Origin: a virus
Taxonomy: Duplodnaviria > Heunggongvirae > Uroviricota > Caudoviricetes
IMG/VR virus record: IMGVR_UViG_2663763286_000017
Reading direction: 5' to 3' (one strand)
DNA: 5,671 bases
Position numbers and translations under genes: made by a program. Within the stretch, counting starts at the first letter, position 1; the number at the start of each line of letters is the position of its first letter. The notes under the pieces were generated by a model that saw nothing but the letters and a program-made list of their open reading frames with translations, made no database searches and was not told the DNA's origin. Of the stretch, positions 1 through 5,671 are shown piece by piece.

Positions 1-272
1 ACTATGCAGATGATGGCTGGGCTGAGGCGGACAATAACATCGCTGAAAATGCGTTGCGGATGGTCAGTCTGGGCCGCAAAAACTACCTGTTCTTCGGTTC
101 GGATCATGGAGGAGAGCGGGGAGCGCTGCTGTACAGCCTGATCGGGACGTGCAAACTGAACGGAGTGGAGCCAGAAAGCTACCTCCGCTATGTCCTTGAC
201 GTCATAGCCGACTGGCCGATAAACCGGGTCGGCGAACTGCTCCCCTGGCGCGTAGCACTGCCGACTGAATAA
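1..272 (+). CDS. IS66-family transposase (TnpC-type), C-terminal fragment; 5' end outside window
   Basis: Frame beginning at nt 3 is open from the window edge to TGA 270-272. Translation ...YADDGWAEADNNIAENALRMVSLGRKNYLFFGSDHGGERGALLYSLIGTCKLNGVEPESYLRYVLDVIADWPINRVGELLPWRVALPTE matches the conserved C-terminus of IS66-family transposases (GRKNxLF..GGERxAxxYSLIxTCKLNxVxPxxYLxxVL...NRxxELLPW), from memory. Track ORF 54..272 is the same frame starting at an internal TTG. Confidence 0.85.
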   Translation, partial: YADDGWAEADNNIAENALRMVSLGRKNYLFFGSDHGGERGALLYSLIGTCKLNGVEPESYLRYVLDVIADWPINRVGELLPWRVALPTE

Positions 273-1750: not shown

Positions 1751-1780
1751 AGTAAAAAACCCGCCGAAGCGGGTTTTTTG
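1751..1780 (-). terminator. Rho-independent terminator ending the three-gene operon (symmetric, potentially bidirectional)
   Basis: AAAAAACCCGC-CGAA-GCGGGTTTTTT: a GC stem (1760-1764 / 1769-1773) flanked by an A-run and a T-run. On the minus-strand transcript the hairpin is followed by UUUUUU, a few nt after the TAA of gene C (1787-1785). Confidence 0.8.
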
Positions 1781-1784
1781 TATA

Positions 1785-2177
1785 TTACATACTCTCAATG
1801 TCATTTTTTAGTGAGTGCTTGTGTAACTCCATGGAGTAATCAACATCACGAAGAGTTTTTTCAATCTGCTTGCTTCTCAGGGTGGCAAGCGCATTATCAA
1901 TTGACACTTTTTCTTCATCTGAAGCATCAGCTCTCATTTTCGTAAGAGTCTTACGAGCCCTTGCCACATCCACCTTGAAACGTACGTCCTCTATGCTAGG
2001 TACGTTAACAAACGTAAGAAGTAGCAAAAAGAAGTGAGCAATAACAACAGCAACCCCAGGGAGAAATGCGTTGATATCAGCAGGTAACCCAATATATGCG
2101 CTAGCCTTGACCAATAGGTAATTTGCCACCGGTGTGCACCACGCTTGGCTTGCAACATACTTAGATTGTTGAATCAT
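1785..2177 (-). CDS. Gene C of unknown operon: 130-aa predicted membrane protein (two hydrophobic helices plus charged coiled-coil-like tail)
   Basis: ATG 2177-2175 overlaps the TGA of gene B (ATGA); GAGG lies 6 nt upstream. Hydrophobic segments VANYLLVKASAYIGLP and FLPGVAVVIAHFFLLLLTFVNV, then a K/R/D/E-rich tail. Stop TAA 1787-1785. No family recognised. Confidence 0.7.
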   Translation of the reverse strand: MIQQSKYVASQAWCTPVANYLLVKASAYIGLPADINAFLPGVAVVIAHFFLLLLTFVNVPSIEDVRFKVDVARARKTLTKMRADASDEEKVSIDNALATLRSKQIEKTLRDVDYSMELHKHSLKNDIESM

Positions 2178-2413
2178 GAAGTGCCTCGCGTTAAATCACG
2201 CTGAACCTCACTCAACGTGGACGCGAGCTCACGTGCATCCTTTGCATCCAACTGAACTTCGCAATAATGCCTAACTCCACATCGATCTATATAAGTAAAT
2301 TTGAGTGTCTTACTTGGTTTAAGCCAAACCAAAAAATGATATACAGCAAAACGAGCCAACATAAAGGCGGCAACAAAAACCGTAATCATCAACATGACAC
2401 TTAAATAAGGCAT
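2174..2413 (-). CDS. Gene B of unknown operon: 79-aa small membrane protein (N-terminal TM, polar C-terminal tail with two Cys)
   Basis: ATG 2413-2411 lies 8 nt after the TAG of gene A; hydrophobic N-terminus LSVMLMITVFVAAFMLARFAVYHFLVWL; stop TGA 2176-2174 overlaps the start of gene C. No family recognised. Confidence 0.65.
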   Translation of the reverse strand: MPYLSVMLMITVFVAAFMLARFAVYHFLVWLKPSKTLKFTYIDRCGVRHYCEVQLDAKDARELASTLSEVQRDLTRGTS

Positions 2414-2421
2414 ATTATTAC

Positions 2422-3309
2422 CTATACGATTCGACGTTCAGCTGCGGCGCGATGCCGTACAACCTGCGTGATAATGTATGCTGGATTCCCCAATACACCA
2501 TTAGTTTCTTTGACTCTTTTTGTCACATTCACTACAAAAAGATCATCTTTACTGAATGACGCTTCGTTTAAATTTACTCGCTCAAGAAAACCAGCATCCG
2601 CCATCTTAACCTTTACATCCTCGCCGTCTGGCAATACCATCCTCCAATCTGTATCGGAAGTAAAGCTCAGCTTAGAAAACTTGACGTTTAAGGTCAATGA
2701 GTCTTCATGTGTATGTTGTACAACCGTATTATTCACTTTTTTAAAAGAAACAGATTGCTCTTGCGAAATAGAGACAATCTCCTCCCCACTTGAGTTTTTT
2801 ACTCTAAACGACGAGTTTTTTTCAGTTTGCAGAGGAGTGTGTACCAATTTACTCATTTCATTGCGGATCGTAGAGTTTGTAACGAGCTTTTGTACGTCAT
2901 TTGAACACTCAAATCGCTCATTATCAACAACAAAAGTCGCTCGGTTATTGGCTTCATCTATAACAACCTCATGTGGCTTTCGCCCTCGCAACCATTCTAC
3001 AACCCCAACCAAACTCCCAGCACTTGCGCCGGTGGCAACAGAAAGCCCCAAGAGTTGCAAAGTAGATAAACTACCCAAAACAGAGACAAGAACAGTAAAA
3101 GATCCTTCCTGAATTGCCTTAATACTAACCCTAGTTGTTGCAGTCTCACCGTGGATAATTTTCTCTGCATTATCAATCAAATTACTTAATGAAGACAGAG
3201 CATCACCAAGCATTTTAGCATCGATCTCATTATTCGCATATGCATCCCCAGCATATGCAATCTCAAGCTCTGTTACCTGTTGGTCGGTCATGAAGTTCAA
3301 CTCCACCAT
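2422..3309 (-). CDS. Gene A of unknown operon: 289-295 aa protein with a central small-residue-rich hydrophobic segment; function unknown
   Basis: Long minus-strand ORF. The first ATG (3309) has no Shine-Dalgarno; the second in-frame ATG (3291-3289) has GGTGGAG 9 nt upstream and is the likelier start (MTDQQVTELEIAYAG...). Stop TAG 2424-2422. Sampled GC is ~35% (2701-2800). No Walker A, HExxH or other catalytic motif seen by eye. Confidence 0.75.
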   Translation of the reverse strand: MVELNFMTDQQVTELEIAYAGDAYANNEIDAKMLGDALSSLSNLIDNAEKIIHGETATTRVSIKAIQEGSFTVLVSVLGSLSTLQLLGLSVATGASAGSLVGVVEWLRGRKPHEVVIDEANNRATFVVDNERFECSNDVQKLVTNSTIRNEMSKLVHTPLQTEKNSSFRVKNSSGEEIVSISQEQSVSFKKVNNTVVQHTHEDSLTLNVKFSKLSFTSDTDWRMVLPDGEDVKVKMADAGFLERVNLNEASFSKDDLFVVNVTKRVKETNGVLGNPAYIITQVVRHRAAAERRIV

Positions 3310-3384
3310 AAAAAATATGCAAAATAATTAACAGTATTTTCACTTTATGGCGGGTGCGTTGAGGATGCCTGACACATCAGAGGT

Positions 3385-3403
3385 GGCGGGGGTTTACCCC
3401 GCC
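3385..3403 (-). other. GC-rich stem-loop in the hok 3' UTR (7-bp stem GGCGGGG/CCCCGCC, 5-nt loop)
   Basis: Perfect inverted repeat 3385-3391 / 3397-3403, starting 8 nt downstream of the hok stop. No U-tract follows on either strand, so it is not a canonical intrinsic terminator. Its position parallels the 3' hairpin of plasmid R1 hok mRNA, from memory. Confidence 0.5.
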
Positions 3404-3410
3404 TGGTCTC

Positions 3411-4672: not shown

Positions 4673-5068
4673 TCACAGTACCGCCTCCTGAAAATTGCCC
4701 TGATAGAACGCCAGTACACGCAGCATAACTTCACTCTTCCGGCACTCGCCACAGATTATGTTCTGTTGTCTGTCGTAGCGGCGTATTTCTCCGTCTGGTA
4801 ACTTTCGAATCAATGTCTGGTCGGTTGTTTTCTCCGCTGCCTTACGCCATACGCGATACACCTGTTCTGATGTAAAAACACCGTATTTACCGGGCATGTA
4901 TAAATCGCCACAAGCCAGTACATCCACAAGGCAACGTCTGACTGAATGCCAGCCTGCTCCCGTCGCTCTCTCCAGTTGTGATATCGTCATGCGTTCATTT
5001 TTGCGTACCAGCCCGATAATTCGGGCCTTCAGTTCTTCACGCTGTTCGTGTGTAAAAGGTTTCGCCAT
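4673..5068 (-). CDS. Hypothetical prophage protein (~131 aa from ATG 5068; track ORF starts at TTG 5083), possible HTH segment
   Basis: ATG 5068-5066 has GGAGG 5 nt upstream (MAKPFTHEQREELKARIIGLVRKNERMTISQLERATGAGWHSVRRC...); stop TGA 4675-4673. No family confidently recognised. Confidence 0.6.
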   Translation of the reverse strand: MAKPFTHEQREELKARIIGLVRKNERMTISQLERATGAGWHSVRRCLVDVLACGDLYMPGKYGVFTSEQVYRVWRKAAEKTTDQTLIRKLPDGEIRRYDRQQNIICGECRKSEVMLRVLAFYQGNFQEAVL

Positions 5069-5083
5069 AAGCGCCTCCGGCAA

Positions 5084-5290
5084 TCACTTTTCCGACACAA
5101 TACGACCGGATGAATCGACAATCTGCCGAACAATATCCCGGTGCTTGTTCAGCTCCCGCAGCGCGGCGCAGACTCGCTCCCACTTCTGAACATCACTTTT
5201 CGCCCTGCGCAGCGCCAGGTTTGCCCTGCGAAGGGACGGAAAAATCAGCTCATCTGCTTGCGTTTCGGTAAACGATGGCAACGGCTGCAC
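5084..5290 (-). pseudogene. 3' portion (~68 codons) of a phage gene interrupted by the IS629-like insertion
   Basis: The minus-strand frame is open from 5290 to TGA 5086-5084 and continues without a start codon into the IS terminal sequence. Track ORF 5084..5383 takes its first 31 codons from inside the IS end, so the native 5' part must lie beyond the IS. Confidence 0.5.
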
Positions 5291-5671
5291 TGAACCGCCC
5301 CGGAAATCCTGGAGACTAAACTCCCTGAGAAAGAGGTAAACAGGATGACTAAAAATACACGTTTTTCCCCCGAGGTCCGTCAACGGGCAGTTCGTATGGT
5401 TCTGGAAAGTCAGGGCGAATATGACTCACAATGGGCGGCAATTTGTTCCATTGCCCCAAAGATTGGCTGTACACCAGAGACTCTGCGTGTGTGGGTTCGT
5501 CAGCATGAGCGGGATACCGGGAGTGGTGATGGTGGACTCACCACCGCTGAACGTCAGCGTCTGAAAGAGCTGGAACGTGAAAATCGTGAACTGCGCCGCA
5601 GTAACGATATCCTTCGCCAGGCTTCCGCTTATTTTGCGAAGGCGGAGTTCGACCGCCTCTGGAAAAAATGA
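5291..5671 (+). mobile_element. Left end of an IS629-like (IS3 family) insertion sequence; body continues right of window
   Basis: The terminal sequence TGAACCGCCCCGG... begins at 5291 (IS3-family ends start with TG) and orfA starts 54 nt inside. The orfA protein matches IS629/IS1203-type OrfA, from memory. Confidence 0.8.
5345..5671 (+). CDS. IS3-family transposase OrfA (IS629-like), 108 aa, HTH DNA-binding subunit
   Basis: ATG 5345 with GAGG upstream; protein [108 protein letters not shown]; stop TGA 5669-5671. The A-run GGAAAAAATGA at the 3' end is where an IS3-type -1 frameshift into orfB would be expected. Confidence 0.9.

Follow-up and report, generated by a model that had tools for sequence, protein, structure and literature searches.

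A gp29-like protein and two small membrane proteins form a conserved three-gene cassette, a candidate anti-phage system of gammaproteobacterial mobile elements

The window analysed here is a 5,671-nucleotide stretch of prophage DNA (Duplodnaviria; Heunggongvirae; Uroviricota; Caudoviricetes; IMG/VR record IMGVR_UViG_2663763286_000017). Its minus strand carries three closely packed genes, designated A, B and C, for which an earlier note, made from the sequence by itself, had proposed a role as an undescribed defence or exclusion module. The locus raises the question of what these genes encode and whether they belong to a system that is already known. The answer reached here is that A-B-C is a three-gene form, found in Gammaproteobacteria, of a defence family that is known but poorly understood, that of MichelleMyBell gp29. 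The term "undescribed" holds for the three-gene form alone, because the family of A is already catalogued in PADLOC, NCBIfam and PHROG.

Protein A as a distant homologue of MichelleMyBell gp29

Comparison of A with the PADLOC models identified PDC-S42 (model PDLC05015; 157.6 bits, E = 1.2e-46, 279 residues), with residues 13-291 of A aligned to positions 4-294 of the 302-position profile. Proteins from Orbaceae, Vibrio, locus L033 and MichelleMyBell match the same model. The family is held under other names elsewhere: phrog_3243 (unknown function) matches A from end to end, and NCBIfam NF053583, "LAPAL motif-containing putative phage structural protein," matches it with 208.6 bits against a cutoff of 60. 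The literal LAPAL string is absent from A, where the equivalent site reads LGDAL. Of the family and structure searches that the earlier note had called for, PADLOC thus supplied a family, whereas none of the three proteins had a Pfam match above threshold and Foldseek gave nothing against the PDB. Pfam matches to EACC1 (0.17) and DUF1659 (0.034) were below threshold and were dismissed. DUF7946 appeared at sub-threshold scores in 17 of 45 family members, covering the N-terminal ~70 residues in the sole member examined, from Vibrio.

One Vibrio record is annotated "MMB_gp29_gp30__gp29." When the 310-residue gp29 of MichelleMyBell was compared with the A profile, the two aligned from end to end (hhalign 96.3%, E = 1.7e-9, 267 columns), and gp29 matched PDLC05015, the same PADLOC model as A, at 1.6e-16. 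A hidden Markov model (HMM) built from enterobacterial sequences only matched gp29 at an E value of 3.8e-5, scaled to 1.8 billion sequences, and its relatives in Mycolicibacterium at 1e-8. As judged from these profile comparisons, A is a full-length distant homologue of MichelleMyBell gp29.

The family is large. A profile search (24 enterobacterial and Orbaceae sequences; E ≤ 1e-3) recovered at least 2,851 clusters at 50% identity, nearly all about 290 aa long and matched end to end. The sole clear domain fusion among the top 150 representatives was P0054, a protein of 430 aa with an N-terminal extension of ~145 residues ahead of the A-like region. In the literature, no paper was found that mentions PDC-S42, the "LAPAL motif" or DUF7946, and none that links PDC-S42, NF053583 and MichelleMyBell gp29. 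The DefensePredictor preprint, with its supplementary tables not searched, gave no sign that the family of A had been tested; a recent screen may have tested a family member.

Membrane partners of A in different lineages

The gp29-gp30 defence of MichelleMyBell, from the cluster N mycobacteriophages, has been demonstrated by experiment to guard lysogens against other phages and was reportedly described by Dedrick et al. in 2017 (Nat Microbiol 2:16251). PMC6426606 describes this prophage defence as abortive-infection-like, with adsorption and injection proceeding. Plating of phage Tweety is lowered by 4 to 5 logs and Tweety gp54 counters the defence, according to PMC8549241, and PMC11856565 calls gp29 a toxic protein and gp30 a putative membrane protein.

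The gp30 protein (67 aa) is a bare hairpin of two transmembrane (TM) helices, and its gene overlaps the end of gp29. Two other actinobacterial A homologues, from Mycolicibacterium and Plantibacter, are accompanied by the same 67-aa gp30-like open reading frame (ORF), which had not been called. No gp30 homologue was found directly downstream of A in the cassette, and B and C are unlike gp30 (hhalign 0.5% and 0.1%). Because B and C are unlike gp30 and the actinobacterial homologues keep a gp30-like ORF, the sequence comparison identifies A as the family core and the membrane module as the lineage-specific part, with gp30 in Actinobacteria and B plus C in Gammaproteobacteria.

The cassette shares with MichelleMyBell gp29-gp30 (DefenseFinder MMB_gp29_gp30) a large protein that is homologous along its whole length, a small membrane-protein gene that immediately follows or overlaps the gene for the large protein, and a temperate-phage carrier in which the genes lie outside the virion and replication modules. 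The prophage location of the cassette was confirmed. Unlike in MichelleMyBell, two proteins unrelated to gp30 stand in its place; the host phylum and the types of carrier phage are also different, and identity between the large proteins is only about 20 to 23%. The membrane proteins downstream of A hold the position of gp30, which is an analogy only.

Co-occurrence of A, B and C across mobile elements

The earlier note had proposed co-occurrence and synteny as a check on its reading, and A-B-C was found to be kept in many genomes and element types. In the general arrangement, A is followed after 0 to 24 nt by a gene for a protein of 79 to 85 aa with one N-terminal TM helix. The third gene, mostly overlapping or abutting B, encodes a protein of 123 to 161 aa that has two hydrophobic helices ahead of a charged tail, also helical. 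Order and sizes were kept in all 31 listed loci, C being incomplete near a contig end in one, and likewise in four further loci, namely an E. coli copy with a frameshift, a PM2-like element of Vibrio, a prophage from IMG/VR and a megaplasmid of Pseudomonas.

At least six kinds of carrier can be told apart (lambdoid, Mu-like, P2-adjacent and Vinavirales-like elements, a VapE island and a megaplasmid). The cassette occurs in VapE/resolvase islands of Enterobacter hormaechei, in an Orbaceae Mu-like prophage just upstream of the holin, in Serratia beside P2-like tail genes (where B was merely uncalled), and, in Vibrio, next to the integrase of an integrated PM2-like (Vinavirales) element. It was also present on 28 IMG/VR contigs, down to 35% identity, in the further IMG/VR prophage at about 30% identity, and on Pseudomonas megaplasmids of 370 to 450 kb at 27% identity. 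All the gammaproteobacterial loci examined, including those with as little as 27% identity, had B and C behind A, and C homologues that had been found independently sit on the same contigs as A homologues. Among 50,697 sequenced phage records, a single one carries the module, and a viral-sequence scan with P0100 gave no match.

The cassette moves between unrelated mobile elements. Conservation of length and sequence across many loci argues that none of the three genes is a chance ORF, and their constant association indicates that they are real, co-inherited genes forming one conserved unit. In the IMG/VR prophage L040, a 270-aa protein with two TM helices is encoded downstream of A-B-C (4740-5552) and matches PADLOC 2TM_IV weakly (1.2e-6); this was the sole defence-like neighbour among ten neighbouring proteins tested.

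Acquisition of the cassette by E. coli prophages

In the window, the cassette lies in the nin-like region of a lambdoid prophage, between hokD and the terminator of the prophage backbone. Its flanks comprise hokD with the sok RNA (Rfam, 108 bits) and the DUF551, DUF977, DUF1367 and YbcO genes; the earlier identifications of hok, DUF551 and DUF1367 were correct. An empty site was found in E. coli BCE049, where both flanks are adjacent and the 3' region of hok abuts the same terminator hairpin. Alignment to this site defined the insert as A-B-C together with 58 nt upstream of A and 9 nt after the C stop codon. The hairpin and U-tract that the earlier note had placed after C are indeed there, but they belong to the backbone, since the hairpin is also present at the empty site.

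The G+C content (GC) is 35% in positions 2701-2800, as had been counted by hand, 41.5% over the whole module and ~50% in both flanks (hok, 52%; DUF551, 46.5%; DUF1367, 50%). The contrast that had been noted is thus real, but it amounts to about 8 to 9 points and not about 20, the flanks being lower than counted. Low GC, precise indel boundaries and the empty site support the proposal that the block is a horizontally acquired moron.

The module is rare and patchy in E. coli, with 4 carriers among 5,426 complete genomes, 3,040 of which match the flanks alone (~55 to 77 bp). Three carriers are O157:H7-type strains with 100% identity; the fourth is a canine strain (84%), in which the module lies in a different lambdoid prophage, again adjoining hokD.

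Predicted properties of A, B and C

The AlphaFold model of A (mean predicted local distance difference test score [pLDDT], 76) is that of a soluble alpha/beta protein in which strands and helices follow one another in the manner typical of beta-barrels around residues 108-176 and 192-281. This model suggests that A is probably a soluble cytoplasmic protein with OB-like barrels. Foldseek comparison of the model with the PDB gave no match with a TM-score above 0.2, and matches in BFVD were to uncharacterised phage proteins alone. The most conserved positions of A are G63-S64-F65, R143, P153, W216, D232, F235, K248-D249-D250 and V277-x-R-H-R-A-A.

The earlier note had called the unit a membrane-protein operon and pointed to a ~35-residue hydrophobic segment of A that is rich in Gly and Ala; a reading of A as an integral membrane protein was rejected. 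The segment (residues ~65-101), in which a GxxxGxxxG pattern occurs, has the lowest confidence in the model and is not modelled as a TM helix. Its Kyte-Doolittle score is 1.85 here, 1.5 to 1.6 in the Orbaceae and Vibrio proteins and 1.09 in gp29, so that the TM threshold is reached only in some enterobacterial members and the segment is no conserved TM helix. It may contact partners or the membrane.

Membrane signals were found for both B and C when their topology was predicted, as the earlier note had advised. B has one strong N-terminal TM helix followed by Lys-rich sequence in Kyte-Doolittle analysis, and is a single-pass membrane protein; the positive-inside rule suggests an N-out/C-in orientation. 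In its polar domain of ~45 residues, P33 is invariant and D43 and G46 are near-invariant in the alignment. C was predicted by AlphaFold2 to be all-helical (helices 2-29, 39-56, 62-84 and 87-129; pLDDT, 71). Its second hydrophobic helix is a strong TM segment (residues 33-63), behind which come an Arg/Lys-rich helix and a long tail, helical as well; a near-invariant proline, P40, stands between the two hydrophobic helices. These features suggest a helical hairpin in the membrane, with the coiled-coil tail placed in the cytoplasm by the positive-inside rule. PADLOC, NCBIfam and Pfam gave nothing for B or C, and only function-less PHROGs were matched, among them phrog_26468 for C (2.1e-9).

Interpretation of the cassette

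A defence role is the best reading of the cassette because A is homologous to gp29 and falls into PADLOC PDC-S42; we infer the function from this kinship, and to that extent the defence module proposed earlier stands. The PDC families go back to genes that lie inside BREX, DISARM and type I restriction-modification (RM) loci (bioRxiv 10.1101/2024.01.29.577857). With moderate confidence, we regard A-B-C as a prophage-borne gp29-type anti-phage cassette that acts by abortive infection through the inner membrane.

In the scheme that we propose, modelled on the MichelleMyBell reports, A would be a cytoplasmic sensor or effector that docks on B and C, paired in the inner membrane. Candidate surfaces of A for ligand binding are the OB-like barrels and the conserved basic motif near the C-terminus, and the hydrophobic stretch rich in Gly and Ala is a candidate for contact with a partner or with the membrane. 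When a heterologous phage infects the cell, A would sense it and the A-B-C complex would be triggered, and the output, formed or controlled by B and C, would be membrane-linked toxicity or growth arrest of the infected cell. Adsorption and injection would go ahead, and no progeny would be made. The scheme resembles the logic of a soluble sensor and a membrane effector in lambda RexA/RexB. RexA/RexB, Sbash gp30/gp31 and gp43/gp44 of Gordonia phage CarolAnn are prophage systems in which a soluble protein and one or more membrane proteins bring about abortive-infection-type exclusion of heterologous phages (PMC6426606, PMC6426596). They are functional analogies only and differ from A-B-C in partner number and topology; no match to the Rex families was obtained for A, B or C in Pfam, PADLOC, PHROG or NCBIfam, in agreement with the earlier note. 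A difference from PDC-S42 itself is that Payne et al. (bioRxiv 10.1101/2024.01.29.577857) define the latter as a candidate consisting of one gene, whereas A was never found alone: B and C, or gp30 in Actinobacteria, always stand behind it.

Several points weigh against an anti-phage role. The PDC systems are explicitly untested candidates (bioRxiv 10.1101/2024.01.29.577857), and no phenotype is known for the module or for any proteobacterial relative. The details of the MichelleMyBell defence come from secondary sources; the similarity of A to gp29 is remote, and function can drift at such distances; and gp30 itself is missing behind A. No known catalytic motif was found in A, B or C, as had been observed before, and there was no informative Pfam or PDB match. 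The genes next to the cassette in five loci are not known defence genes and gave no convincing defence-island signal. The NF053583 label, "putative phage structural protein," and the position of the cassette directly upstream of lysis genes in several phages also count on this side.

The cassette can also be read differently. In a toxin-antitoxin (TA) or addiction cassette, or another moron of lysogen fitness, A would be a toxin restrained by B and C that stabilises its carrier or alters host physiology, with no dedicated anti-phage role. The cassette does sit within hok/sok, which is an addiction module of the classical type, its carriers include megaplasmids and small islands, the five loci lacked defence-gene neighbours, and gp29 is called toxic in PMC11856565. 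We nevertheless consider this unlikely. The sole experimentally studied relative gives heterotypic phage defence, and the family is found within loci for BREX, DISARM and RM; moreover, TA logic is compatible with abortive infection, which makes this alternative partly a sub-case of the anti-phage reading. Less probable again is superinfection exclusion at the envelope, in which B and C, together with A, would block entry of phage DNA at the inner membrane. P22 SieA, T4 Imm and HK97 gp15 are small membrane proteins that block DNA entry by superinfecting phages. Two small inner-membrane proteins in a prophage would fit such a role, and Charlie gp32 is a comparable small membrane protein (PMC6426606). 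The same source, however, has the homologous MichelleMyBell system permitting adsorption and injection. The conserved core of the family is moreover the ~290-aa cytoplasmic A, its membrane partners being interchangeable, and exclusion proteins mostly work alone.

A function in the phage life cycle, whether structural, morphogenetic or accessory to lysis (holin/antiholin- or spanin-like), seems very improbable to us, although the name of NF053583 points to it. The cassette lies immediately upstream of holin and endolysin genes in Orbaceae Mu-like prophages and in L033, the two helices of C give it a topology like that of a class II holin, and there were weak matches to Rz-like spanin PHROGs (E = 0.15 to 0.16). 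Those matches are not significant, and no significant match to holin or spanin families was obtained for A, B or C, in keeping with the earlier observation that they are not holin-like. The E. coli module is ~6 kb from a separate, complete lysis cassette with its own holin, lysozyme and lysis protein, while a VapE island and a megaplasmid carry A-B-C with neither virion nor lysis genes close by. The cassette inhabits both tailed and tailless (Vinavirales) elements, was found in just that one phage record, and is missing from most similar lambdoid prophages, with a precise empty site, so that it is dispensable in sister prophages. NF053583, phrog_3243 and DUF7946 are names without tested function, and the distribution argues against a structural role; the NF053583 name seems to be misleading.

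A broader proposal, which we offer tentatively and would not expect to hold in full, extends the abortive-infection reading to the family as a whole. The gp29-like/PDC-S42 proteins might constitute a very widespread abortive-infection core whose membrane output has been swapped between phyla. With its OB-like barrels, A would detect a protein or a nucleic-acid intermediate of the phage and would then permeabilise the membrane by way of its partners, by a RexAB-like logic that evolved independently and is far commoner than Rex. The cassette of the E. coli O157 type would then be the first genetically tractable Gram-negative example.

What appears to be new is a conserved form made up of three genes, in which the membrane partners are two unrelated proteins and which is spread across Gammaproteobacteria and several element types, together with the link between PDC-S42, NF053583 and MichelleMyBell gp29, which joins three separately named database families (the last as DefenseFinder MMB gp29). 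The MichelleMyBell system, whose mechanism is still unsolved, has been treated as an actinobacterial curiosity; a version in E. coli would open it to E. coli genetics and standard phage panels. That PDC-S42 is a three-gene unit in Proteobacteria changes what must be cloned to test it, and A alone may be toxic or inactive. Since the module resides in O157:H7-type prophages, it may shape which phages infect these strains, including Stx and therapeutic phages.

Gene layout in the window

The coordinates of the cassette and its boundaries are given in Table 1. The arrangement in the earlier note (three minus-strand ORFs, the start of A at 3291, the GGTGGAG upstream, the 8-nt gap and the ATGA overlap) was confirmed in full. 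The maximal ORF of A extends over 2422-3309, and the actual start is the ATG at 3291. This start is backed by PGAP (870 bp in an identical genome), and the equivalent Met-Thr is the start in 23 of 23 aligned A homologues. The Shine-Dalgarno sequence GGTGGAG is at 3307-3301, with GGAG 9 nt ahead of the ATG. The TAG stop of A (2424-2422) is followed after 8 nt by the ATG of B, whose TGA overlaps the ATG of C as ATGA; B and C appear to be translationally coupled.

Table 1. Features of the A-B-C cassette, with positions in the 5,671-nt window
Feature	Position	Strand	Product or basis
Gene A	2422-3291	minus	289 aa; gp29-like / PDC-S42 / NF053583 protein
Gene B	2174-2413	minus	79 aa; N-terminal TM helix and conserved polar domain
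Gene C	1785-2177	minus	130 aa; two N-terminal hydrophobic helices and charged helical C-terminal half
AT-rich leader, carried with the cassette	3292-3349	minus	sequence and empty-site alignment boundary
Intrinsic terminator	1754-1779	minus	fold, -15.7 kcal/mol; same hairpin at the empty site
Inserted cassette, ~1.57 kb	1776-3349	minus	both window junctions aligned to the empty site

The operon ends at the terminator AAAAAACCCGCTTCGGCGGGTTTTTT (read 1779-1754), which consists of a 5-bp GC-rich stem (CCCGC/GCGGG) with additional A-U pairs, a UUCG loop and a U6 tract. Consensus promoter scans revealed no convincing sigma-70 promoter upstream of A. The leader contains the motif AGTGAAAAT at -53 from the A start (3336-3344, minus). 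The pattern AGTGA(A/T)4 recurs at -53 to -81 of the A start in 8 of 20 loci (the window and L002, L003, L012, L014, L016, L027 and L035, which represent different genomic contexts), against an expected 0.034 in 150 nt. We regard it as a candidate for a promoter or operator element that travels with the cassette. A plus-strand ORF of 214 aa (2468-3112) is antisense to the conserved A and was not accepted as a gene, since nothing supported it; the codon composition of A most likely accounts for it.

The position of the cassette next to hok was also inspected. It lies between a stem-loop at the 3' end of hok (GGCGGGG-TAAA-CCCCCGCC, without a U-tract; window 3350-3410) and the terminator, which is the sole U-tract terminator downstream of hok (empty-site region of BCE049, L041 1480-1660). 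The hok transcript may read into A-B-C in carriers, or hok 3'-end formation or regulation may be altered. The module and hok/sok co-vary in E. coli as one block of ~2 kb (window 1756-3782 matches L002).

Just downstream of the terminator is a 58-aa ORF (1418-1594, minus; GC, 38%) with no family match, part of which is called a PGAP pseudogene fragment. It occurs in module-bearing and empty-site genomes alike and therefore lies outside the cassette. Both ends of the window contain insertion sequence (IS) remnants. A C-terminal fragment of an IS66-family transposase (DDE_Tnp_IS66_C, 6e-18) is at 54-272 (plus), and an IS3-family OrfA, about 96% identical to IS1203, is at 5345-5671 (plus). Collinearity with strain F3113 is lost at window position ~310 and between ~4883 and 5290, with IS3 homology from 5291. 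These breaks and the IS ends indicate that the source prophage is a differently IS-disrupted relative. The IS3 element cuts the DUF1627 gene (5084-5383) short.

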